64,000 nt of DNA from an uncultured Gammaproteobacteria bacterium (GCA_964452565.1 CAYVLY010000001.1:451053-515052); one strand, 5' to 3'; shown: positions 11,857 through 61,152, numbered from the stretch's first letter. Notes: generated from the letters alone by a model not told the origin. Made by a program: numbers and translations.

Positions 11857-12240
11857 CTATTCTACTGGTTCTAGATAAAACTGCTCTTCTGCTGATTCTG
11901 GGTCAATTTCAGGTCCTTTTTCAGCAGTCAAACCCTCATTTTCCTGCACAACTGACTCAAGCTCCTCTGGCAGCTCTTCGAGATCTATATCAGATGCCTC
12001 TATTGAGAACTCATCAAGTGACTCTTCAGATTCGATCTCTCCGTCAAAACCCTCAAATTCCTCATCCACGAAGAACTCTTCAGACAGCCCACACTCTTCA
12101 TCGGAATACTCATCAATAAGCGCCTCATAACTGGAAAGTGGCAGAATCACCATTTCTTCCTGATTCTCATCCAAAACCACTACTGGAGAATTAGTCTTAC
12201 GCGCAATGCGCATTAGTCTGTTGAGCTGATTATTGTCCAT
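11857..12240 (-). CDS. Hypothetical highly acidic protein. The N-terminal roughly 45 aa resemble a Phd/YefM-type fold and are followed by a roughly 85-aa Asp/Glu-rich tail. The start is taken at MDNNQLNRL.
   Basis: MDNNQLNRLMRIARKTNSPVVVLDENQEEMVILPLSSYEALIDEY, then DEECGLSEEFFVDEEFEGFDGEIESEESLDEF.... No toxin-like partner was seen. Function unknown. Confidence 0.5.
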   Translation of the reverse strand: MDNNQLNRLMRIARKTNSPVVVLDENQEEMVILPLSSYEALIDEYSDEECGLSEEFFVDEEFEGFDGEIESEESLDEFSIEASDIDLEELPEELESVVQENEGLTAEKGPEIDPESAEEQFYLEPVE

Positions 12241-12355
12241 ATGTGCCAATGTTATCTTACTGGGACAAAAAAGCAAGAGTTTATATCATCATAAAAATCA
12301 TCCAGAAAAATTGACGCCCCCCGTGGGAGTTCCCAGGGAGGGCGTACAAACCGGG

Positions 12356-16938: not shown

Positions 16939-17415
16939 TTGCTCGAAACCTGGAACCTCTTCCGTACCGCCTGGTTACTGTATACACAGAGACGAAAGCG
17001 GCAAAAGCTCATCAAGAAGGGCTACAGGATCCCTCCTGCTCTGGCTGCAACTGACCTGATGAATCTCATCCAGTCCCCCTACGTCAACAACGACGTCGTA
17101 GTATCTATGTGGGAGATCTTCCACGAGGTGTGGTGCTACGAAGATGACTTCTACGCTGCTCGCGAGAAGGTCGTAAATGCTATGCGTGAGCACCGCCCCG
17201 GGTTGTTCAGGGCCATCCGACAGCGTGACGAACAACGGATGATGGCTGAGATGCTCCAGGACTTCGCAATGTTCTTCACGGCCATGGGACTCATGCCACC
17301 CGTCGTCGAAACTCACATGTTCGAGGTTCGCATGATCGTGCCCTCTCCTAACTGCGACGAATGCGGAGATCGCCACTCCTGCGGCCTGCGCCCTCGTGGC
17401 TGCGGAGAGGAATAG
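16939..17415 (+). CDS. Hypothetical protein in a GC-rich cassette, 158 aa with a TTG start and a Cys-rich C-terminus (CDECGDRHSCGLRPRGCGEE)
   Basis: The ORF has its own promoter and Shine-Dalgarno motif. Its composition is clearly more GC-rich than the flanking rpsL and S2P genes. No family was recognised. Confidence 0.5.
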   Translation: MLETWNLFRTAWLLYTQRRKRQKLIKKGYRIPPALAATDLMNLIQSPYVNNDVVVSMWEIFHEVWCYEDDFYAAREKVVNAMREHRPGLFRAIRQRDEQRMMAEMLQDFAMFFTAMGLMPPVVETHMFEVRMIVPSPNCDECGDRHSCGLRPRGCGEE

Positions 17416-20441: not shown

Positions 20442-20984
20442 CTACAGTTCAGAAGCAAGAAAAACCCTGAACCAATTATCAGATTTGAATCTTGAAGAAA
20501 ACAACCTAGCCACATAGTCACTAATATTTTTCGAACAGCACCATACACTTCGATGCATCTGCTTAAAGCCTAATCGCTTCAATATGTGCCTAACCTGATT
20601 ACGTAGTCGTTTGTGATCCTCAGGTATATCAAATGAGATCAAACAAATCTGGCCACCTGGTAGATTATTTGCGTTCATTGAGAGCTGCGCCATATATTCC
20701 TCGAACCCTGCCTTAGAAAATGATGTTAAATACCCGTCAGCTATCTTTTTTCTATCGATTAATCTTCTTTTCTCTAACCTCCTAAATTCCTGTCTCCTTA
20801 GTTTAGCCTCTTTTCTGTCTAAGAACTCTCTTGCGCCCTCTATACCAAATCTAACCACCAACCCCGGCCTAGAAAGACCAAAGTGAACATCTTCAATAGC
20901 TTGCCCGATATCAACAAGTATTCTCGCTGTTCTAGAATGAGGTTGAAGAGGCCTTACAGCTTCATTAATTAAACGATCGTTCAT
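20442..20984 (-). CDS. Hypothetical protein whose C-terminal roughly 85 aa resemble the Cas2/VapD fold; the N-terminal roughly 95 aa are a basic helical extension (possibly a PaaX-like regulator family)
   Basis: The C-terminal half ICLISFDIPEDHKRLRNQVRHILKRLGFKQMHRSVWCC...DNWFRVFLASEL follows the Cas2 pattern (beta1-YD[IV], RRR-KV-K-L, G-R-Q-SV[FW]EC, R[IV][FY]-L). No cas1 gene or CRISPR array is in the window. Confidence 0.5.
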   Translation of the reverse strand: MNDRLINEAVRPLQPHSRTARILVDIGQAIEDVHFGLSRPGLVVRFGIEGAREFLDRKEAKLRRQEFRRLEKRRLIDRKKIADGYLTSFSKAGFEEYMAQLSMNANNLPGGQICLISFDIPEDHKRLRNQVRHILKRLGFKQMHRSVWCCSKNISDYVARLFSSRFKSDNWFRVFLASEL

Positions 20985-27907: not shown

Positions 27908-28064
27908 AGTGCATCTAGTTTATCGAAATCCGCTGAAAATGGGAAATACATATCAAGGTTAAGCCCCCGAGGTTCAACCTTGGATGCAAATCCTGCCAAA
28001 CAAAGGCTTTGACAAACCGACCTTAGTACGGCAATGTATAGCCATCCCTTTCAAACCCCTGCCC

Positions 28065-28580
28065 ATGGAGCAAAGCATGCAACATGCACAACGACCCAGT
28101 ATCTCAACCATGATCCTCGTGTCGCTCTTCGTGGTGAGCCTCGCAGTCCTTATGAGGCCCAACGACACCGAGGTAATCGAGAACGCTAGTGACGTGATGG
28201 TCGGGCCGACAGAAGAAGAACACGAGTTCGCCCACACGATCGTCGACAACAACTGCGACGGCCTCAACTGCTTCGCGTACATCGCCAGTCCGCAGGACAC
28301 GGACGATGAACTCTACGACGCAGGCTCTGATCGCGGCCGGTTCGTGCGCCTCATCACCCCACAGGGAGATGATCTCGCATTCGACATCCGCTACGGTGAC
28401 ATCTTCGTAGCGATCGACATCCTGCACTGCCGGGTCGACTCGAACTGCGGTGTGAGACCAATGCAATTCAATGAGGGGTTCGGTCTCATCTTCTACGACG
28501 CGCCCCGAGGAGATCACAAGCAGACCATGCACCCAAACGATCTGCGCTTCAGCCTAGCACCCAAAAAGGAGACGCCATGA
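28065..28580 (+). CDS. Hypothetical secreted or membrane-anchored protein in a GC-rich island; the start is uncertain (28065 or 28104) and the protein contains an HEFAH motif
   Basis: An N-terminal hydrophobic segment MILVSLFVVSLAVLM, 6 Cys, and about 60% GC. The track ORF begins at 27984. Confidence 0.45.
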   Translation: MEQSMQHAQRPSISTMILVSLFVVSLAVLMRPNDTEVIENASDVMVGPTEEEHEFAHTIVDNNCDGLNCFAYIASPQDTDDELYDAGSDRGRFVRLITPQGDDLAFDIRYGDIFVAIDILHCRVDSNCGVRPMQFNEGFGLIFYDAPRGDHKQTMHPNDLRFSLAPKKETP

Positions 28581-29002
28581 ACACTCGACACCTCATCCTC
28601 CTGATCATGACCATGCTCTCTGGCTGCTGGTGGGCTCCTTCGGCCCAAGAGGTCGAGCTGATCCGTGCGATCGACGCAGCCGGCTGCGGCTACAACCACA
28701 AGAGATGCAAGATCTACATAGATCGCCGAGAAGAGAGTGATCCTACTGTCCACCTGGAGTACTTCCGCATTGTGAGCGCGGGGTCACTACGGGCAGGAGA
28801 AGATGTCGACAAGACTTTTGAGATAGCAAAGGGCAGGATCTTTCGCGCTCTTGAAGAACTTGACTGCACGAAAGATGGCCACTGTGGGGTCCGGGTATAC
28901 GTCGTGTGCTCGAACATCGTCTACGCCAAGGTTGCTCACCCCAAGAAACAGCCCATCAACATCAACACCGGCATCGATGCTGACATGCTCAAGGAGGAAT
29001 GA
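28577..29002 (+). CDS. Hypothetical lipoprotein (lipobox LSGC) in the same GC-rich island
   Basis: MNTRHLILLIMTMLSGCWW... is a signal peptide ending in a lipobox cysteine. The protein is 141 aa and about 58% GC. Confidence 0.5.
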   Translation: MNTRHLILLIMTMLSGCWWAPSAQEVELIRAIDAAGCGYNHKRCKIYIDRREESDPTVHLEYFRIVSAGSLRAGEDVDKTFEIAKGRIFRALEELDCTKDGHCGVRVYVVCSNIVYAKVAHPKKQPININTGIDADMLKEE

Positions 29003-29004
29003 TC

Positions 29005-29118
29005 ATGCGGAGGATATGGTTCAAGTTCTGGTTCCAGGTCAACTCGAACATGCCATTGATGATCGTCATCGCACTGATCATCGCAGCTGCCTGGCTCCTG
29101 CCCTATGGCAGCCACTAG
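29005..29118 (+). CDS. Possible 37-aa single-transmembrane small protein, MRRIWFKFWFQVNSNMPLMIVIALIIAAAWLLPYGSH
   Basis: An AAGGAGG motif sits 7 nt upstream of the ATG, and the start overlaps the stop of the preceding gene. The ORF is too short for the ORF track. Confidence 0.3.
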   Translation: MRRIWFKFWFQVNSNMPLMIVIALIIAAAWLLPYGSH

Positions 29119-29291
29119 GCGTTCAATATGCCTGTCTCGCCCGCCCGCGTCCCCACCAGGACGCGGCTTCTGCTTTTCACAGAACCCAGACGCCAGACTT
29201 CAGAACCCAGAAAGGATCTTATCTGTGTTCTGTGTTCTGCCCAAGCACAAGACCCCGACGCGCGGGACGGGGTCGATAGACGGTTGAAACG

Positions 29292-31148
29292 TTACTGAAC
29301 ATTGACCCTGTGGGGTCGCGGTCCGGATCCAGAGGAGAACTTGGAGCCTCCTGGATCCTGCGGCGTTGCTGTGATTCGGTAGTCGATGCCGTTGGAGAAC
29401 GTATCATCCCACGATATCGTAGCCTGGTAGGCGCCACCACGCGTGGCAAGCGGTTTGGACTTGTATGCACCCGAGTTTGTCGGACGATAGTAGACCACCA
29501 CCTTGTAGCTGCCTTCTGGGTGCACGCGCGCCTTGACCATGAAATCCTGGCCGATAGTGAGCGAACTCACTGGCACGTGCTGGATCCCAGGCTCGATGGT
29601 TGGCTCAGGCTCAGGTGCGGCGACCATAGCCTCAGGTTCAGGTTCGACCGTCACCTCGGGCTCGATCAGCACTTCTGGCTCAGGGATCTCAATGACTGGC
29701 TCAGGCTCAGGGGCCTTGGCAACCGAATCAGGTTCGATCGGATCGGGCACCGGAACGACTTCAGGCTCAGGCTCGATCACCACTTCAGGTTCGATCTGTA
29801 CCAATGCTTCGAGCTCGACAACCTTGGCTGCCTCAGGGCTGGGACCATGGGTTTCGATCTGTACCTCAGGCTCGGGCTCGGGAACTACGATCGGTTCTGG
29901 GTCCGACATGCCGGCCAGTTCGACCACAGGCTCCGATGCAGTAGCCTCTGGCGTCGCATCACCATCACCGAAGAGGACCATCCCCGCAACACAGAGCAAG
30001 ACCACTAGCCCAATGATTGCCACTGGGATGGGCCACCTGCTCCTGCGAGGTGTCGGTACATCGTCAGACAGACTATCGCCGGGCAGAACCGTGTGACCAC
30101 CTGGATCAAACGTTGTGCCAGCACTTCGGAGACCATCCAGATCTTGATCACCACTGACTGCATGCCCGTAACGTTCCTCAGGAACTTCGAGCTCCTCAGG
30201 AACCATTGTGCCGCCAGGCGGGACGACGCTCTGTGGCTCAGCCTCTACGGCCTCAGGCACACTAGCAAGCGCTTCATCAGGCTCGGACTCTGGTTCGACC
30301 ACCACCTCAGGTTCGGGCGGATCGTCAGGAAGCTCGTCGTAGATCGCACGAAGCGCATCGATCATCTCTTGCGCGCTCTGAAAGCGATCTTTGCGATTGT
30401 ACTTCGTTGCTTGCTCGATAAGCCCACGGAACACCTCAGGCACACTATTGAGCATATCAAGATCAAGCTCGCACGATTGAAGGTCTGGAGGAACTTCTAC
30501 CCCAACCAGCATGCAGTACAGCGTTGCGCCAACAGCGAAGATGTCAGAACGCAGATCTACGGAAGATCCATCACTCTTCTGCTCTGGCGACATGAAGCCA
30601 AACGTTCCCATCGGGGTACCGATCTTGGTAAGGCCTGTATCTTCGAGCTCCATCTGAACGATGCCGAAGTCAGTGACCTTCACCGCACCATCCTCAGTGA
30701 AAAGGATGTTCGCGGGCTTAATGTCACGGTGTACCATACCACGACCATGTGCGAGAGACAGTGCTCTGAGAACTGCAATACACACGCTAGCAGACCACTT
30801 CTGGCCTAGCGAACCGCGTTGATGAATCCTGTTAAGCAACGAGCCACCGGTGATGAATTCCATAACAATGAACTGCTTATCGCCACCATCACCATTACCG
30901 AATACGTCGTAGACAGATACGATGTGGTGGTGCCTAAGCCTTGCCATCGCCTTAGCTTCACGTACAAATCGCTCGCGAATCATCGGCCTATGAGACAGAT
31001 TGGGCAGCAACATCTTGATAGCAACTTCTGCATCCAGAGCGGTATTAGTCGCCCTGTACACCACTGCCATACCCCCCTCACCAATGATGGAGCCCAACTC
31101 ATACTTACCATCCGCAAGGAAGCGGTCTGGCGTTTTTTTCGAAGTCAT
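29292..31148 (-). CDS. Hanks-type Ser/Thr protein kinase with one transmembrane helix, a Pro/Glu-rich (PEPE repeat) extracytoplasmic linker and a roughly 90-aa C-terminal domain
   Basis: Kinase subdomains are present: GEGGMAVVYRA, VAIK, HRDIKPANIL, DFG and SPEQ. The transmembrane helix is WPIPVAIIGLVVLLCVAGMVLFG. The gene is about 62% GC, and AAGGAG sits 6 nt before the ATG. Confidence 0.85.
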   Translation of the reverse strand: MTSKKTPDRFLADGKYELGSIIGEGGMAVVYRATNTALDAEVAIKMLLPNLSHRPMIRERFVREAKAMARLRHHHIVSVYDVFGNGDGGDKQFIVMEFITGGSLLNRIHQRGSLGQKWSASVCIAVLRALSLAHGRGMVHRDIKPANILFTEDGAVKVTDFGIVQMELEDTGLTKIGTPMGTFGFMSPEQKSDGSSVDLRSDIFAVGATLYCMLVGVEVPPDLQSCELDLDMLNSVPEVFRGLIEQATKYNRKDRFQSAQEMIDALRAIYDELPDDPPEPEVVVEPESEPDEALASVPEAVEAEPQSVVPPGGTMVPEELEVPEERYGHAVSGDQDLDGLRSAGTTFDPGGHTVLPGDSLSDDVPTPRRSRWPIPVAIIGLVVLLCVAGMVLFGDGDATPEATASEPVVELAGMSDPEPIVVPEPEPEVQIETHGPSPEAAKVVELEALVQIEPEVVIEPEPEVVPVPDPIEPDSVAKAPEPEPVIEIPEPEVLIEPEVTVEPEPEAMVAAPEPEPTIEPGIQHVPVSSLTIGQDFMVKARVHPEGSYKVVVYYRPTNSGAYKSKPLATRGGAYQATISWDDTFSNGIDYRITATPQDPGGSKFSSGSGPRPHRVNVQ

Positions 31149-33962: not shown

Positions 33963-34210
33963 AGTTTTATTTTATGAATCGGCAAAAAGTATTTTACCAT
34001 ATTCGAATTTTCTGACAATAAAAATGAAGACACCCGGCCGCGAGGGGTCGGGTGTCAACGGATGCGCCGAGCTCGGCGCAACATGTGGCAGTAGAGACTC
34101 ACAAGATCAGCCCTGCCAAGCTGACCAAGATGATCTGGCCCATCGGTGCCATCGAAGACGATCACTCGCCCTCAGCACTCGTGGACCAACTCGTCGGCGC
34201 CGTCGCAGGC

Positions 34211-34336
34211 TCAGGTCTGCATGTAGTGGCGCAGGCGGCGGTCGACGTCGGCCTCGATGTCCTTGGCAGCGAAGGATTCGGCATAGCAGCGCGATGACAG
34301 GCGGGCGAGGGCGAAGGTGCGCGGGGGATCGTTCAT
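34211..34336 (-). CDS. Possible 41-aa small ORF (MNDPPRTFALARLSSRCYAESFAAKDIEADVDRRLRHYMQT) inside a 66% GC island
   Basis: It is the only frame in 34000-34450 that reads like a protein. The overlapping longer ORFs on both strands are Arg/Gly-rich and are treated as GC artefacts. Confidence 0.2.
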   Translation of the reverse strand: MNDPPRTFALARLSSRCYAESFAAKDIEADVDRRLRHYMQT

Positions 34337-34504
34337 GGTTCGTTGGCTCCTGGATGAGTTTCACCGAAGCAGACTCTGACTATTCTGCTACCACGGTTTC
34401 GAAACGCTTGCGCGCTCCGCACAGGCTGCCCTAGGCAGGCTTCCTGTGGTCAGGAGCCAAAATGTAACAAAAACAACCAGGTCTGTCAACCCCTTTTGCA
34501 TAAA

Positions 34505-37258: not shown

Positions 37259-37440
37259 GGCGCAAGAATACGAAAATTAGGGAAAAATGTCAATCGACGG
37301 TCGCAATTGGTGTTGTTCCAGAGACCGTCGTCCTGAGCGACCGAGCGTTTACGCGAGGAGTGAAGGATCTCCAAAAACAAAGAACCCCCACTGCCGCAAG
37401 GACCGAGGGGGTCCAATGCGGGCGGGGGTGAGGTGGGTAG

Positions 37441-37941
37441 CTAGTCCCAGGCGGGATCGGGCTGGCCATCCGGGACGGTGAGGGTCATGCAGGCGGCCTC
37501 GAACGAACCCTCGGGGTACACAGGCTTGCTTGAGGGTTCGAGCTGGTCCTCGTGCTCACCATCGAGCCAGGCGTTCACGTCCGCATCCGAGTCCTCAAGG
37601 TCGGGGGTGAAGTCGGCCAGATTGTGCTCGAACTGCTCCGCGAAGCTTTCCACCTGGTAGAGGATGCCGAGCATATCCATCTCGACCTCAGCCACAGGCG
37701 TGCACAGAACGCAGAGGTGGATGTCACCATCCTCCCTGAAGCGGCGGAAGACCTTGTAGGCCGGGCCGATCGAGACACTCGGGTTCTGCACGTACTGGCC
37801 CACCTGGATCTGGCCGAGCGTATCCACGGTAACACCATCGTACACATCCCGTCCGAAGCGCCAGGCGTGCACGACCTCCGCATCAGACTCCTCGCTCGCA
37901 CGCAGCTCCACGATCACATTCTCGAACTTACGGATAGCCAT
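37441..37941 (-). CDS. Hypothetical acidic protein in a GC-rich cassette (166 aa)
   Basis: About 60% GC. It is driven by the conserved promoter-leader module at 38035-38103 shared with 60653..60982. Confidence 0.5.
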   Translation of the reverse strand: MAIRKFENVIVELRASEESDAEVVHAWRFGRDVYDGVTVDTLGQIQVGQYVQNPSVSIGPAYKVFRRFREDGDIHLCVLCTPVAEVEMDMLGILYQVESFAEQFEHNLADFTPDLEDSDADVNAWLDGEHEDQLEPSSKPVYPEGSFEAACMTLTVPDGQPDPAWD

Positions 37942-38034
37942 GGTAGGCTCCTCTTAGCTAGGGTGGAAGTATTGGGAAAGGGGGATCTGATAACGATGTT
38001 CGCTATTCAAACCTCCTTTTCCCAAACATACCTA

Positions 38035-38103
38035 TTTCAAATGAACGGCTAAGAATAGCACAAAAAAGGCCTTTTGTCAAGCCTTTTTGCTAATTTTAGC
38101 CTT
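38035..38103 (-). repeat. Copy A of a roughly 68-nt conserved promoter-leader module: on the minus strand TTGACA, 17-nt spacer, TATTCT, followed by a conserved +1 region GTTCATTTGAAATAGGTATGTT
   Basis: About 85% identical to 61085-61152. The -35 is at 38075-38080 and the -10 at 38052-38057 (minus strand). Confidence 0.6.
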
Positions 38104-41168: not shown

Positions 41169-41204
41169 CCCCCTCCATCTCCCCCTTCGAAAGGGGGAGG
41201 GGCA
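41169..41204. repeat. Hairpin repeat variant ccccctccatctcccccttcgaaagggggaggggc
   Basis: CCCCCTTCGAAAGGGGG is a palindrome, with flanking CCCTCC and GGAGGGG. Confidence 0.55.
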
Positions 41205-41777: not shown

Positions 41778-42233
41778 CTATGGCTCCAGATGCGTGGTGG
41801 TGTCTCGAAACTCTGCCCTACAACTTCTCTTGGCCCTCCTGTTTGCCCGTCTGATCTGGTGCAGCGGCCAATCCGGGTCCTCCAACCTTACGTAGGTGTA
41901 ATTCACCTCTGGCAGCCCTGGCCACAGATTGCACCACTCCAACCACCCAGCCAGATGGAGGTCTTGTCTTTCAATATAGAAATCTACTCGATTCCTTCCA
42001 GAATCCGGAGTGTCGTCAAGTCGGATGGTATAGCCCTCATATATGAACACTACCGTATCCTTTCTTTCAGACGTACCGTGCCACCTGTAGTCAACGTGTT
42101 CCACGTAGCTCGAGCCAGGCACTGAGAAATGTATGCTCATTGGCATGACCGTGTTGTCACCCTCAGCAGAGACGGTCGGGGAAAGCAGAAGGATGTAACA
42201 GGAAATGAAGAGGGAGAGGAGACGACGAGGCAT
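41778..42233 (-). CDS. Hypothetical secreted protein (signal peptide MPRRLLSLFISCYILLLSPTVSA) in a moderately GC-rich cassette
   Basis: AAAGGGG lies 7 nt before the ATG at 42233. The gene is about 55% GC. The track ORF begins further upstream at 42284. Confidence 0.45.
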   Translation of the reverse strand: MPRRLLSLFISCYILLLSPTVSAEGDNTVMPMSIHFSVPGSSYVEHVDYRWHGTSERKDTVVFIYEGYTIRLDDTPDSGRNRVDFYIERQDLHLAGWLEWCNLWPGLPEVNYTYVRLEDPDWPLHQIRRANRRAKRSCRAEFRDTTTHLEP

Positions 42234-42374
42234 GGTAACGCCCCTTTCATGTTCGAACACATCACAAGTGAGGCTGATCCTCATTCGCGACTAAATAAAG
42301 GTAACAGGAAAATCGGCTTATGTAAATCGTTACAGCACAAACTCCGCCGCGTTCTCGGAACGGGCGGAGTTAGG

Positions 42375-47185: not shown

Positions 47186-47203
47186 TGGTACACCGGGTGG
47201 GAC
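47186..47203 (-). repeat. 18-nt exact duplicate of the tRNA-Lys 3' end (tggtacaccgggtgggac), 147 nt downstream of the intact tRNA; looks like an att-site scar
   Basis: Identical to 47351-47368, with the same T-run flank. The intervening 147 nt are GC-rich. Confidence 0.7.
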
Positions 47204-47350: not shown

Positions 47351-47427
47351 TGGTACACCGGGTGGGACTCGAACCCACGACCCACTGATTAAGAGTCAGT
47401 TGCTCTAACCAACTGAGCTACCGGTGC
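47351..47427 (-). tRNA. tRNA-Lys (anticodon CTT)
   Basis: Manual fold: acceptor GCACCGG/CCGGTGT, D-stem GCTC/GAGC, anticodon stem ACTGA/TCAGT with loop CTCTTAA, T-arm GTGGG-TTCGAGT-CCCAC, discriminator A, and an encoded CCA. Confidence 0.85.
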
Positions 47428-49305: not shown

Positions 49306-49761
49306 CTACGCCGAAGCACACATAGCGGAACGACGCGGACGGCTCGGGAGGCGCGGATGCATACCACGGCGGGCACCAACCGACTCATTGACCTCAGGCT
49401 CATCACCATTGCGACCGAAGCGAACCTTCAGATGCAAACGCAGACTCCTTGCTTGCCTGGGCAGCAAATCACGTACGGCCAAACGAATCTCTTCTTCGAG
49501 CTCCTCGCTGCCACCCCCTCCCTTGCCGCACCCGACGACCCAGTGGCCATGATTCTGGTGCAGAACAATGACTGGATCTTGATCCCTGCTGGTTTGAGGT
49601 TCAACCCTGATCTCGAAGTTGTCCTCGAACTCGGTGATCCCATCGAACAGGTCGATATGCCTTTTCAGGACACCGGCGACTGTACCCAGAACAGCGCATA
49701 CGTGTTTGGGCTTGGTACTGCCGTACTGTCTGAAGGTGAGTGTGAAAAGCTTTGTAGTCAA
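49306..49761 (-). CDS. Hypothetical protein in a GC-rich cassette (151 aa) with a TTG start preceded by AAGGAG
   Basis: A candidate promoter TTGACC, 17-nt spacer, TATTCT lies upstream at about 49850-49880 (minus strand). The gene is about 58% GC. The overlapping plus-strand ORF 49357..49839 is judged antisense. Confidence 0.45.
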   Translation of the reverse strand: MTTKLFTLTFRQYGSTKPKHVCAVLGTVAGVLKRHIDLFDGITEFEDNFEIRVEPQTSRDQDPVIVLHQNHGHWVVGCGKGGGGSEELEEEIRLAVRDLLPRQARSLRLHLKVRFGRNGDEPEVNESVGARRGMHPRLPSRPRRSAMCASA

Positions 49762-49890
49762 AGTGACTGTCTCCTTCTGCTCTCATCTGCTTGGTTTTTG
49801 TCACACACGCGTTCCGAACCGTTCAATACGCGCCTGTGAGAATAACCAAAAACCCTAAATAGGTCAAGTAGGGCTTATTGGGCTCATCAC

Positions 49891-55010: not shown

Positions 55011-55970
55011 CTATGCGGTCAGCCGACCTGAGCGGATGAGGTGTAGGAGCTGAAACCCTCGCTCACCAAGCAAGACGCCGCTGAGGTGCGGTAGTGCCCG
55101 TTCCAGATCTGATCCCTGCCGGCTGGCGTCATGCAGCCTAGCTTCGAGACGATCGCGACCATCTCCGAGCCTAGCAAGCGTCTTGGCTACATTGGGCACC
55201 AGCAGGAAGCTCGTACCAGCTGCCCGGAAAAGTCCCAGGTCAGTCTTGGGCGAATCACCAACACTAAGTACGCGCGGCAAAGGAATCTGCTGCTTTTGCG
55301 CCCAAAAAGCGAGCACATCCCCCTTGTTGAAGTCATGGACAACCGTTCTTGGCCAATAGCCAGAAATTTCATCGAGCCCATTCCAACTCAAGGACAACGC
55401 TCGTATGCTAAGCCGCCGATAATCTTCTGGCGTGAAAAAATGCCATGCCCACATTTCTATCGCATCCAAAAGCCCGTAGGAGGCAAACATGACCGGTTCT
55501 TCTGATGCATCCTGAGTAAGGAACGTCCTGAGGAATGTCTCAAGACCCAGACGGGGTGTGAAATCTTTGACAAGTTGCTGGAAGCTGATCTTGTCTACCT
55601 TGGCTGCAGCCAGACGGTCGACCGTGCGGAAGATCCAGTCCTCGAGCGCCTCCGGGCTATCGAACTCGCCGGCCAGATACTGACGCAGTTCGGCCAGATC
55701 AGCGTCCATGTCGACCTTGCTCATCAAGGCGCGAGTAGCGCCGAACGTCTGACCAGCATGAACCGTGCCGTCGAAGTCCAAGGCAGCGCCCTCGGCCTGC
55801 CTGACTCGCTCAAGCACCTGCTCAACCTCGGATCTCTCGAGATTCACAGCCAGAATATCTTCTTCCGGCCCAGCCCGCCCCATGAGATGGCGCAGCTCAT
55901 TGATACCTCTGAAACCAACAACCCGGAACGTATGACCATCATCCGTTTGAAAGGACATCCTGACCTCCAT
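55011..55970 (-). CDS. HAD-superfamily hydrolase-like protein in a GC-rich cassette
   Basis: ALDFDGTVH matches HAD motif I (DxDGT) and LSVGDSPKTDLG resembles motif IV. The gene is about 62% GC. Confidence 0.55.
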   Translation of the reverse strand: MEVRMSFQTDDGHTFRVVGFRGINELRHLMGRAGPEEDILAVNLERSEVEQVLERVRQAEGAALDFDGTVHAGQTFGATRALMSKVDMDADLAELRQYLAGEFDSPEALEDWIFRTVDRLAAAKVDKISFQQLVKDFTPRLGLETFLRTFLTQDASEEPVMFASYGLLDAIEMWAWHFFTPEDYRRLSIRALSLSWNGLDEISGYWPRTVVHDFNKGDVLAFWAQKQQIPLPRVLSVGDSPKTDLGLFRAAGTSFLLVPNVAKTLARLGDGRDRLEARLHDASRQGSDLERALPHLSGVLLGERGFQLLHLIRSGRLTA

Positions 55971-57649: not shown

Positions 57650-57678
57650 TTGACAGGGAGTTGTTTTTCTGCTATCTT
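57650..57678 (+). promoter_or_regulatory. sigma70-like promoter: TTGACA, 17-nt spacer, TATCTT
   Basis: Upstream of 57717; AAAGGGA lies 7 nt before the ATG. Confidence 0.5.
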
Positions 57679-57716
57679 GCGACCTTGCCATCACTCCAAC
57701 ATGAAAGGGAACCGTC

Positions 57717-58001
57717 ATGGCAATGACCCGAAGCCCCATAGTCTTTCACTTGACCGTGCGGGTTACAGCAAGGCAACAGCAAGCAATCCGTACCGGACCT
57801 CCCCTCTGCGTCTCCCTGAAGAAGATCGTTCGTGTCGAGCGCATCAGGCACATCGACTACGAATTCGAGATCGAGCTCAGGTTCGAATTCGATGAACGCC
57901 TCGACGACGCACCCATGGTCTTCTTCACCCTCATGTCTATCCTCAGCACGGATGGCATGCCGTTTGAAGTCATCCGTATCACTGACGGAACCTCGGGCTG
58001 A
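57717..58001 (+). CDS. Hypothetical small protein (94 aa) in a GC-rich cassette
   Basis: It has its own promoter and Shine-Dalgarno motif. The overlapping antisense ORF 57672..58082 is judged spurious. Confidence 0.35.
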   Translation: MAMTRSPIVFHLTVRVTARQQQAIRTGPPLCVSLKKIVRVERIRHIDYEFEIELRFEFDERLDDAPMVFFTLMSILSTDGMPFEVIRITDGTSG

Positions 58002-58178
58002 GACGACAATCAGTCCCCTTTGGCCGTATCTGGCCTGTTCGACACCCACGACTGGGGTGTCGATTTCTTTTACTATTGACATGGTGCCTATTCCCTGCTA
58101 AGTTCCATGGCTTTCAAAGATGCGGTATGATTTGAACAAAGGTTCAATTCAGACCCCACCTTTCGAAAGGAGTGTCCC

Positions 58179-58469
58179 TTGAAGCTTGCAACCTTGACCA
58201 TCGGAGCCGCCTACTACATCCTTGGAGCAGTGTTCATCCTGCTGAGCCTCCTGCCCATGGGCGCCACGATCCTCTTCGTGGTATCTATTGTGAGACTCAC
58301 GATGAACCAAGCAATCAATGCTGATCTGATCACGACCATAGCCATCGCCTGCTCTGAGATCGGCATCATGACCATCGCCACTATAATCCTGGTCAAGTGG
58401 GCCATCGGTGTATTCAAGTGCACCAAGACACACACAGCCTGGATGCGCCACCGCCTGCAAGCACTCTAG
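58179..58469 (+). CDS. Hypothetical small membrane protein (96 aa, 3 transmembrane helices) with a TTG start
   Basis: AAAGGAG lies 6 nt before the TTG. That Shine-Dalgarno motif is embedded in a degenerate copy of the CCCC..TTCGAAAGG..GG hairpin motif. Confidence 0.4.
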   Translation: MKLATLTIGAAYYILGAVFILLSLLPMGATILFVVSIVRLTMNQAINADLITTIAIACSEIGIMTIATIILVKWAIGVFKCTKTHTAWMRHRLQAL

Positions 58470-58681
58470 TCGAAAATCGACTCTCGACACTCCCCTCTCG
58501 ACACCCTCTGGGGTGTCTTCTGCTTTGGGTTGCCAAAAGCCGCATTTTTTGGCATGATGCACGCGCTAAAAGGGTTGAAATGTTTAACCGCTCGGCCTCC
58601 CGCCTCGCTTGTTGAATATGTTGACGATTGTAATTTCCGACATAAACAATTTCAACACCTTTAACATATTAAACATCCACT

Positions 58682-60548: not shown

Positions 60549-60652
60549 TTATACATAAAGAACCCCCACGCGAACGCAGGGGTTCGAGGGGGCAACCGCA
60601 TTTTATAAAAAAGACCACCCTGCAAAGAGGGGCGGCCTCTTGAGGGTGGGTA

Positions 60653-60982
60653 TCAGTCGATGTTGGCGATGGGGCAAAGCACCACCGTGCCATCGATTGC
60701 CACAGCCCAACCTTCCCAGACTGTAGCGCTTTCAGTATCGCGCCAGTCGTCGAGGGGAAGGTTGGGAAGCTGATGCTCCAGCTCCACCCTCAGCTCGTCG
60801 TTCTTGCCGATTTCGTATATCTCTTCAGGGGTCAGTTCCCTGCCCCAGAGATATTCGATCATCGGAACGACGCTTTCAGATCCCTCCACATAGCAGCCAA
60901 ACACTCTAGCGATCGTCATGGGGTCAAACCCCTGGTGCGAGGCGAGAATAGCAGTAGTGGGGGTGGGGGTCGAAGCAGACAT
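60653..60982 (-). CDS. Hypothetical protein (109 aa) in a GC-rich cassette
   Basis: It is driven by copy B of the conserved promoter-leader module. The gene is about 60% GC. Confidence 0.45.
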   Translation of the reverse strand: MSASTPTPTTAILASHQGFDPMTIARVFGCYVEGSESVVPMIEYLWGRELTPEEIYEIGKNDELRVELEHQLPNLPLDDWRDTESATVWEGWAVAIDGTVVLCPIANID

Positions 60983-61084
60983 GAGGTCTCCCTTGCGGGT
61001 TCGTCAGACGAGATTGTCTAACGGTGGCCGACCTCAGTCGGACACTAAGTCGTGTGGATGCCAACCCATGCGACCATGAACATA

Positions 61085-61152
61085 CTCTTTCAATGAACAA
61101 CAGAATAATAGCACAAAAAAGCACTTTTGTCAAGAGTTTTGCTTGATTTTTG
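61085..61152 (-). repeat. Copy B of the conserved promoter-leader module (minus strand: TTGACA, 17-nt spacer, TATTAT, then GTTCATTGAAAGAGTATGTT)
   Basis: About 85% identical to 38035-38103. The -35 is at 61128-61133 and the -10 at 61105-61110. Confidence 0.6.

Follow-up and report, generated by a model that had tools for sequence, protein, structure and literature searches.

Two unrelated GC-rich genes with a common promoter-leader block and common terminator ends in an Uhrbacteria-like genome

Two single-gene transcription units, designated A and B, are present in a 64,000-nucleotide stretch of chromosome (the whole stretch of DNA analyzed, referred to here as the window) and appear to be built on the same expression frame. 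Each is a full one-gene unit composed of a predicted promoter, a 5' UTR, a Shine-Dalgarno sequence, a GC3-rich orphan ORF, and one or more intrinsic terminators. The promoter and the start of the predicted transcript are common to both units, as are short sequences at the terminator ends. The ORFs enclosed between these ends share no similarity at the DNA level, and their products are unrelated (BLASTP E = 0.44). The origin favored here, with modest confidence, is that A and B derive from duplication of a native expression frame, comprising the promoter-leader and the terminator, whose cargo has been replaced or has diverged.

Structure of units A and B

Both units are on the minus strand. Local alignment of the two copies and nhmmer place the promoter-leader block at 38025-38097 in unit A (copy A, about −57 to +22) and at 61079-61150 in unit B (copy B). 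In the best local alignment, 60 of 75 columns are identical (80%) and five are gap columns. The local score is 30, compared with 9.0 ± 1.2 (maximum 15) in 300 shuffles. The initial annotation of this DNA had given an identity of about 85%, which is right in kind and slightly generous; over the coordinates used there, 53 of 74 gapped columns (72%) are identical. The block begins just 5' of a perfect TTGACA −35, continues through the spacer and a TGn extended −10, and ends at approximately +22 of the predicted transcript. Both copies read CTTGACAAAAG(GC/TG)CTTTTTTGTGCTATT and then GTTCATT(T)GAAA.AG(G)TATGTT, and the minus-strand sequences quoted in the initial annotation are indeed present at both regions.

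Conservation is unevenly distributed along the block. The cores are identical at 26 of 28 positions and the spacers at 15 of 17. The core pattern TTGACAAAAGNNCTTTTTTGTGCTATT matches the window solely at 38054-38080 and 61107-61133, with no match in 100 dinucleotide-preserving shuffles. The segment 3' of the −10, which had been singled out earlier as a conserved transcript start, is significant by itself (p ~2e-4). The 25 nucleotides 5' of the −35 do not show significant similarity between A and B (p = 0.25). The distal leaders, which make up the remaining 83-96 nucleotides before each start codon, show no conservation between the two units, as the initial annotation had also stated.

When nine cassette-like regions were compared all-against-all, A and B were the sole pair with significant similarity. 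An nhmmer model that includes both copies returns copy A with E = 2.9e-15 and copy B with E = 2.7e-16. A profile of five copies searched against 1.6 Mb of loci recovered no additional significant copies. Two independent Logan assemblies (SRR8146440 and SRR8146441) contain the cassette A region with identical sequence, so that it is not an assembly chimera.

The core promoter of copy A (38052-38080) has a −35 of TTGACA (38075-38080) and a −10 of TATTCT (38052-38057). It matches the consensus at 10 of 12 positions plus TG and is among the top-scoring promoter matches of the window. Its 17-nucleotide spacer is AAAGGCCTTTTTTGTGC, the 3' end of which is the TGn extended −10 motif. The conserved transcript start GTTCATTTGAAATAGGTATGTT, delimited by similarity to copy B, occupies 38025-38046, and the position of the −10 predicts a TSS at approximately 38046. 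The rest of the 5' UTR (37942-38024) is non-conserved and structured, with a Shine-Dalgarno sequence of GAGGAG 7 nucleotides before the ATG. The 108 nucleotides between the predicted TSS and the ATG, both included, have a folding energy of −33.2 kcal/mol (z = −3.5).

The cassette A ORF (37441-37941), correctly located by the initial annotation together with that of cassette B, encodes 166 amino acids. It is a strict orphan with GC1, GC2, and GC3 values of 0.68, 0.37, and 0.81 and an overall GC content of 62%. Protein A found only itself among 5.8 billion clusters and in a phmmer search against 1.84 billion representatives; these two exhaustive protein searches returned no homologue among approximately 15 billion proteins. 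It has no Pfam, PHROG, NCBIfam, PADLOC, or PDB match, and an AlphaFold2 model made without an alignment is uninformative (pLDDT 36.7). The predicted intrinsic terminator (37373-37429, terminator scan, −32.2 kcal/mol) is a long GC hairpin followed by TTCTTTGTTTTT and includes the 13-mer GTGGGGGTTCTTT at 37379-37391.

The core promoter of copy B (61105-61133) has a −35 of TTGACA (61128-61133) and a −10 of TATTAT (61105-61110), separated by the 17-nucleotide spacer AAAGTGCTTTTTTGTGC. With 11 of 12 consensus positions plus TG, it is the top consensus match in the window. The conserved transcript start GTTCATTGAAAGAGTATGTT, defined by similarity to copy A, occupies 61079-61098, and the TSS is predicted at approximately 61098. 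The ORF (60653-60982) encodes 109 amino acids and is preceded by a Shine-Dalgarno sequence of GGGAG 7 nucleotides before the start codon. Its GC1, GC2, and GC3 are 0.59, 0.45, and 0.66, with an overall GC content of 57%. Protein B is a singleton cluster at 90% identity; it has no Pfam, PHROG, NCBIfam, PADLOC, or PDB match and no relative in IMG/VR. The terminator scan predicts tandem terminators at 60554-60651 (−20.0 and −18.8 kcal/mol). T1 (60605-60651) begins with ACCCACCCTCA, which is common to A and B, and T2 (60554-60585) has the 13-mer GTGGGGGTTCTTT at its 3' end (60557-60569).

The 3' ends of the two units are therefore alike in two places, a likeness overlooked in the initial annotation. 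ACCCACC(C)TCA lies 3' of both stop codons. The 13-mer is found at both terminators and nowhere else in the window, even with up to two mismatches allowed. The number of terminators differs, with one GC hairpin and T run in A and two in B. The A-B similarity at this end is short (13 and 11 nucleotides) and lies within terminator-type sequence.

Both copies have the elements of a sigma-70 extended −10 promoter (TTGACA, a spacer of 16-18 nucleotides, TGn, and TAnnnT), the spacer being 17 nucleotides in each. Both spacers end in TGTGC, which gives the extended −10, and a G approximately 6-7 nucleotides 3' of the −10 opens the conserved GTTCATT. Extended −10 promoters of the Gram-positive type bear a −16 TRTG motif; TTGACA, a 17-nucleotide spacer, and TGTGnTAnnnT are likewise present in A and B. 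Such promoters form a promoter class and not a homologous family, and membership of the class leaves the transcript start and the terminator common to A and B unexplained. In its layout, the block corresponds to a strong sigma-70-type promoter joined to a transcript start, and its activity is predicted from the consensus. As a class, promoter-like matches are scarcely commoner than in shuffles across the scanned regions.

Related loci and similar promoters

Eight relatives were compared, four per locus, in which IF-2 is 79-90% identical and FtsH 84-90% identical to the window. These were taken from the protein database; a scan of GTDB representatives with an IF-2 pattern gave only 37-47% identity. 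The cassette, promoter, and terminator are missing from the same intergenic sites in all eight, and none of them has the block. At locus A, relative L086 (IF-2 90% identical) has 74 nucleotides between the pilin-like gene and IF-2, consisting of a terminator and the conserved IF-2 promoter, and L089 has 122 nucleotides. L087 contains a different 434-nucleotide insert at exactly the cassette A site, with inverted repeats on both sides, and L094 contains an unrelated gene of normal GC content. At locus B, downstream of FtsH, the next core gene follows after 142 nucleotides in L093 and 72 nucleotides in L096, and other content is found in L091 and L092. Because the sites of the eight relatives lack the whole unit, the promoter is part of what was inserted and is not a feature of the locus itself. 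A and B are accordingly strain-specific insertions at variable intergenic spots.

The intergenic DNA of this group has other features. IF-2 is apparently leaderless, with its ATG 6 nucleotides after a −10 of TATTCT (window 37259-37293; L086 5796-5830). The IF-2 promoter, including the spacer, is almost invariant in four relatives, the equivalents in L087 and L089 among them. A palindrome, CTCCCCCTT-N3-AAGGGGGAG, is present once in the window (41178-41200) and is repeated in the relatives' intergenic DNA, with copies in L087 (8817-8837 and 17186-17206), L091 (17434-17454), L092 (9876-9896, 12029-12049, and 18326-18346), and L095 (7807-7827). It seems to behave like a REP-type repeat.

Cassettes C, D, and E of the window have a different 3' end. 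Cassette C (34029-34489, minus strand) has a promoter at 34461-34489 and a GC-rich body in which the only ORF is C3-rich, 41 amino acids long, and possibly decayed. It ends in a GACACCC..GGGTGTC terminator (34029-34056). Cassette D (57650-58075, plus strand) has its own extended −10 promoter, a 94-amino-acid GC3-rich ORF (57717-58001), and the terminator GACACCC..GGGGTGTC (58041-58061). Cassette E (58076-58530, plus strand) has the promoter TTGACATGGTGCCTATTCCCTGCTAAGTT, a hairpin leader, a 96-amino-acid membrane ORF, and a GACACCC..GGGTGTC terminator (58500-58517). Its leader contains CGGTATG, which resembles AGGTATG, 18 nucleotides from the −10, the same distance as in copy A. The GACACCC..GGGTGTC sequences constitute a second terminator family, with 3 matches against 0.01 expected, and are the counterpart in C, D, and E of the GTGGGGGTTCTTT tail in A and B.

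Locus E, upstream of FtsH, is occupied by orthologous units in the window (58076-58530, plus strand), L091 (9482-9935), and L092 (9261-9700). The three sequences are approximately 75-85% identical from the −35 through the 110-nucleotide leader to the TTG start codon, and the leaders have the same hairpin fold (z −3.2 to −4.8). Directly past the start codon the similarity breaks down, and it is regained at the GACACCC..GGGTGTC terminator. The products, membrane proteins of approximately 95 amino acids, are unalignable (BLASTP E = 38). Three further GC-rich genes in synteny, F, H1, and J, show 24-50% identity, compared with 80-90% for their neighbors.

By analogy, locus E may be a precedent within the lineage for a frame that is kept and a cargo that is lost. 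Since it keeps its signals around an unalignable ORF, unrelated proteins are not proof of a promoter moving alone. The initial annotation had reasoned from the unrelated proteins of A and B that the promoter moved independently of its cargo. This step is not safe, as the terminator ends are common too. A/B and locus E are not strictly parallel, because the A-B homology ends at approximately +22 and locus E keeps the whole 5' UTR.

The exact 27-mer core was found on three JGI metagenome contigs (L083, L084, and L085; 46-47% GC) in a search that required identity within the core. L083 has a third, unrelated GC-rich ORF after the core, and part of the leader and transcript start is also in common. 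In L084 and L085, similarity is confined to −35 to −10, and the downstream genes are of normal GC content. For one protein of L085, the cluster carries the name Candidatus Magasanikbacteria, and the L083 proteins are from another organism. These contigs suggest that the 27-mer core is present in at least one other CPR lineage. No match to the 27-mer was found in GTDB representatives. In four relatives, the promoter that follows pilB can be aligned with the block, a TTAGCnGTyC start included. The strict pattern TTGAC[AC]-N14-TGnTAnnnT was also sought in 194 kb of related loci, where GC-rich DNA follows 13 of 17 matches, compared with a 10% background (P = 2e-10, with orthologous sites that are not independent). 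The promoter type appears to be native and widespread.

A similar sequence, AAAAGGGCTTGACAAAAGCCCTTTTTTGTGTTATACT, is located in an intergenic region of Enterococcus phage EF-P10 (Saphexavirus, KY472224.1, 601-638). It is identical to the copy A core at 34 of 38 positions and forms a hairpin whose loop contains the −35, as in copy A. The resemblance is probably a convergent promoter design. Given this degree of identity in a phage promoter, part of the A-B core identity may be due to functional constraint and not to descent. The copy A hairpin (−15.3 kcal/mol, z = −3.8) was considered as a terminator of the upstream pilin-like gene and rejected, as only copy A and the phage example fold. The hairpin is absent in copy B, L083, L084, and L085 and is therefore not a general property of the block.

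Possible origins of the common ends

In the origin favored here, the 5' end of the frame would be the near-consensus sigma-70-type promoter with the first 22 or so nucleotides of the transcript, and the 3' end would be the tail of the intrinsic terminator. Each frame, enclosing a different small GC3-rich orphan gene, would be an autonomous one-gene transcription unit, with its promoter firing from approximately 38046 in A and 61098 in B. The whole unit would have been duplicated first. The interior, meaning the distal 5' UTR and the ORF, would later have been replaced or have diverged past recognition, and the expression signals, being under selection, would have been retained during this cargo turnover. 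Such frames would spread through ordinary recombination and not through a dedicated site-specific system; uptake of DNA may come first, as the window encodes a ComEC homologue. Their function would be strong and self-contained transcription and termination of fast-turnover accessory genes, leaving the flanking core genes undisturbed. Whole-unit duplication with cargo turnover would explain the data at least as well as a promoter moving alone. The A/B pair also falls under the published operational definition of putative mobile promoters, detailed below.

Units of comparable build are known from phages. A phage moron (Hendrix) is an autonomous unit of odd composition with its own promoter and terminator, located between genes that are adjacent in related genomes. 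A and B also have their own predicted promoter and terminator, are atypical in composition, and are inserted between genes that are adjacent in relatives. They differ in that they are not in a phage or prophage and are flanked by core genes, and no cassette protein has a PHROG match.

Reuse of the promoter alone is a somewhat unlikely alternative, in which a block of approximately 75 nucleotides was copied or captured without cargo and set before two separately acquired genes. Putative mobile promoters (Matus-Garcia, Nijveen & van Passel 2012, as summarized in PMC3575422) are described by an identity of at least 80% over at least 50 nucleotides before non-homologous genes of one genome, within an upstream region of about −150 to −50 from the start codon. 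By these published criteria, the A/B pair falls within the operational definition, with its 80% identity, gaps included, at the lower edge. The block lies −84 to −156 from the ATG in copy A and −97 to −168 in copy B. The coding sequences are not paralogous, the block corresponds to no IS, tRNA, or known riboswitch, and the core is found in other taxa too. Movement of the promoter alone also agrees with the end of A-B similarity at approximately +22, 83-96 nucleotides before the start codons, and with the core and partial leader before a third unrelated GC-rich ORF in L083. A/B depart from the described cases in their CPR host, their GC3-rich orphan cargo, and their common terminator ends. The unique motifs at those ends are left unexplained by a promoter moving alone, and because they are common to A and B, what was reused looks like an entire expression frame. 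There is also no evident mechanism for moving 75 nucleotides alone. Inspection of the sequence revealed no terminal inverted repeats bounding the block, and a target-site duplication is missing when the empty site of L086 is compared. Promoter-bearing MITEs (Correia, ERIC, and REPIN) are likewise short repeated intergenic sequences able to supply a promoter, but the block has only two copies in 64 kb.

The similarity could instead reflect function and not descent, with the block as an optimal promoter or as the operator of a common regulator, so that A and B would belong to a regulon and their likeness would be convergent or selectively frozen. This is considered unlikely. Candidate operator features do exist, namely the imperfect palindrome ACAAAAGGCCTTTTTTGT in the spacer and TTCA-N-TGAA at +2 to +11. 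The same 27-mer precedes unrelated genes on three metagenome contigs, reaching at least one other CPR lineage, though the search itself imposed identity within the core. Restriction of the similarity to −35 to −10 in L084 and L085, the phage promoter identical at 34 of 38 positions, and the T-rich spacers followed by TGn that recur in other cassette promoters all agree with constraint on this segment. Against this, the A-B similarity extends 22 nucleotides into the transcript, with indels, and reappears at the 3' end. No regulator was identified, and the center of the palindrome varies (GGCC, GTGC, and GCCC). A cis-regulatory RNA as the conserved entity (an attenuator, a leader peptide, or a protein-binding 5' element), to which the promoter would be incidental, is very unlikely. 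In the segment from +1 to +22, AGGTATG lies 18 nucleotides from the −10, as in the locus E leaders with their conserved hairpins, and the conserved ATG opens a short uORF in each unit (MFGKRRFE* for A, MFMVAWVGIHTT* for B). The Shine-Dalgarno-like bases are, however, merely 1-2 nucleotides from the uORF ATG, the rest of the A and B leaders is unrelated, and the strongest conservation is in the −35, spacer, and −10, which are not transcribed. No Rfam family matches, even at E <= 1; two tRNAs alone reach the gathering score in the window, and nothing credible at E <= 1 is found in either cassette.

The initial annotation had proposed a portable expression module or an attC/attI-like junction of a cassette system. 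The first part agrees with the promoter anatomy, the two non-homologous orphan genes, and the absence of the units in relatives. The second part, an integron-like site-specific system with the block as an attI/attC-type junction, is largely refuted, as it fails all three defining tests that were run, and is given almost no weight. A and B do resemble integron gene cassettes in their small size, orphan cargo, odd composition, and conserved ends. They lack IntI, attC, and an array behind a common Pc promoter; every cassette has its own promoter, and the cassettes occur one at a time at dispersed places among core genes. The main ORFs of the 64-kb window include no integrase, recombinase, or transposase. 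No imperfect palindrome of the attC type with R'/R'' cores was found, and the cassette ends contain no GTTRRRY/RYYYAAC-type attC site, GTTCTTT and GTTCATT both being misfits to GTTRRRY. At their 3' ends, the cassettes have ordinary GC hairpins with T runs after them, and there is no Rfam or other match. Inspection of the flanks of both copies for recombination-site features, as had been proposed, gave no attC-like site and no terminal inverted repeats.

Genomic setting and biological meaning

The window is chromosomal and contains genes for r-proteins, EF-Tu, EF-G, IF-2, TruB, RNase Y, HU, GyrA, S1, FtsH, LeuRS, and ComEC, as well as pilin-like genes. The IF-2 and FtsH homologues carry the names Candidatus Uhrbacteria or Patescibacteria, by which the host is assigned as an Uhrbacteria-like Patescibacterium (CPR). 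A and B are solitary, each between core genes, with IF-2, TruB, RNase Y, FtsH, S1, and GyrA in their flanks.

The composition of both ORFs sets them apart from the housekeeping genes, which have a GC3 of 0.34-0.42. Approximately a dozen small ORFs of the window have a GC3 of 0.55-0.81 and no Pfam, PHROGs, NCBIfam, or PADLOC family match. C-ending codons dominate the codon usage of this GC3-rich class (C3 of 0.41 vs. 0.15 in core genes). High expression is an unlikely cause, because the GC3 of EF-Tu is only 0.34. The GC-rich composition suggests foreign cargo, but several facts oppose this simple reading. The GC2 of the GC-rich genes is core-like, and the non-coding parts of the units are GC-rich too. 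The small membrane proteins after pilB are GC3-rich (0.66-0.72) and are conserved syntenic orthologues with 39% identity across relatives. Recent transfer from a GC-rich donor is weakened as an explanation by the lack of homologues of protein A, the core-like GC2, and the existence of GC3-rich syntenic orthologues. Structured RNA genes were rejected as a source of the GC-rich islands, since Rfam finds the two tRNAs alone and the ORFs show a strong GC3 > GC1 > GC2 periodicity. A phage or plasmid origin was also rejected, with no megablast match for 36-40 kb in phages or plasmids. A phage signal is likewise missing, with no PHROG match, no IMG/VR relatives of B or F, and no occurrence of the core in IMG/VR.

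Two codon-usage regimes coexist in this one CPR genome of approximately 0.7 Mb and in relatives L089, L091, L092, L093, and L096. The GC3-rich regime consists of small orphan or membrane-protein genes with a GC3 of 0.55-0.9. Examples in the window are 16939-17415, 27984-31148, 34029-34489, 41778-42284, 49357-49839, 55011-55970, and 57650-58530. Most of these genes are each served by a separate near-consensus extended −10 promoter, and the class includes some conserved syntenic orthologues.

The largest GC-rich island (27984-31148) contains a 618-amino-acid PknB-like Ser/Thr kinase with a repetitive Pro/Glu/Val-rich C-terminal half. Among PADLOC defense-system models, the kinase has a generic PD-T4-6 match alone. 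The island also contains two small secreted-looking ORFs on the opposite strand, one of which is 50% identical to a syntenic gene of L089. Elsewhere in the window, 20442-20984 encodes a 180-amino-acid protein with a Cas2-like/PaaX_M domain, with no CRISPR array noticed nearby, and 11857-12276 encodes a 139-amino-acid acidic protein with a weak Phd/YefM antitoxin match. The last 18 nucleotides of tRNA-Lys, GTCCCACCCGGTGTACCA (47186-47203), are repeated 165 nucleotides downstream (47351-47368) and flank a short GC-rich segment. This repeat looks like an att-type duplication that integration at the tRNA may have left.

A broader reading, speculative and improbable on present evidence, is integrase-free cassette exchange in Uhrbacteria-like CPR. 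Conserved frames would act as homology anchors, and cargo would be swapped via natural transformation and homologous recombination. Under this reading, there may be a distinct class of fast-turnover, C3-rich accessory genes held in promoter-leader/terminator frames between core genes. Because codon usage is unlike that of the core even in conserved syntenic orthologues, a persistent force would be acting on the C3-rich class. This would point to biased gene conversion at recombination hot spots or to selection on mRNA, and not to leftover foreign composition.

Almost no prior knowledge exists on promoters, leaders, and gene turnover in Patescibacteria (CPR), and a literature search found nothing on these subjects or on GC-rich gene classes in CPR. 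A and B give a concrete predicted promoter and transcript start, which could be useful for genetic tools in Patescibacteria. They also suggest that strain-specific orphan genes in a genome of this size are acquired or maintained as self-contained units in which expression signals are reused. What may be new is the genome architecture around them, with its two regimes. The two codon regimes, together with the concentration of near-consensus promoters on the GC3-rich class, would bear on how epibionts with reduced genomes, bacteria living attached to host cells, diversify their accessory proteins.
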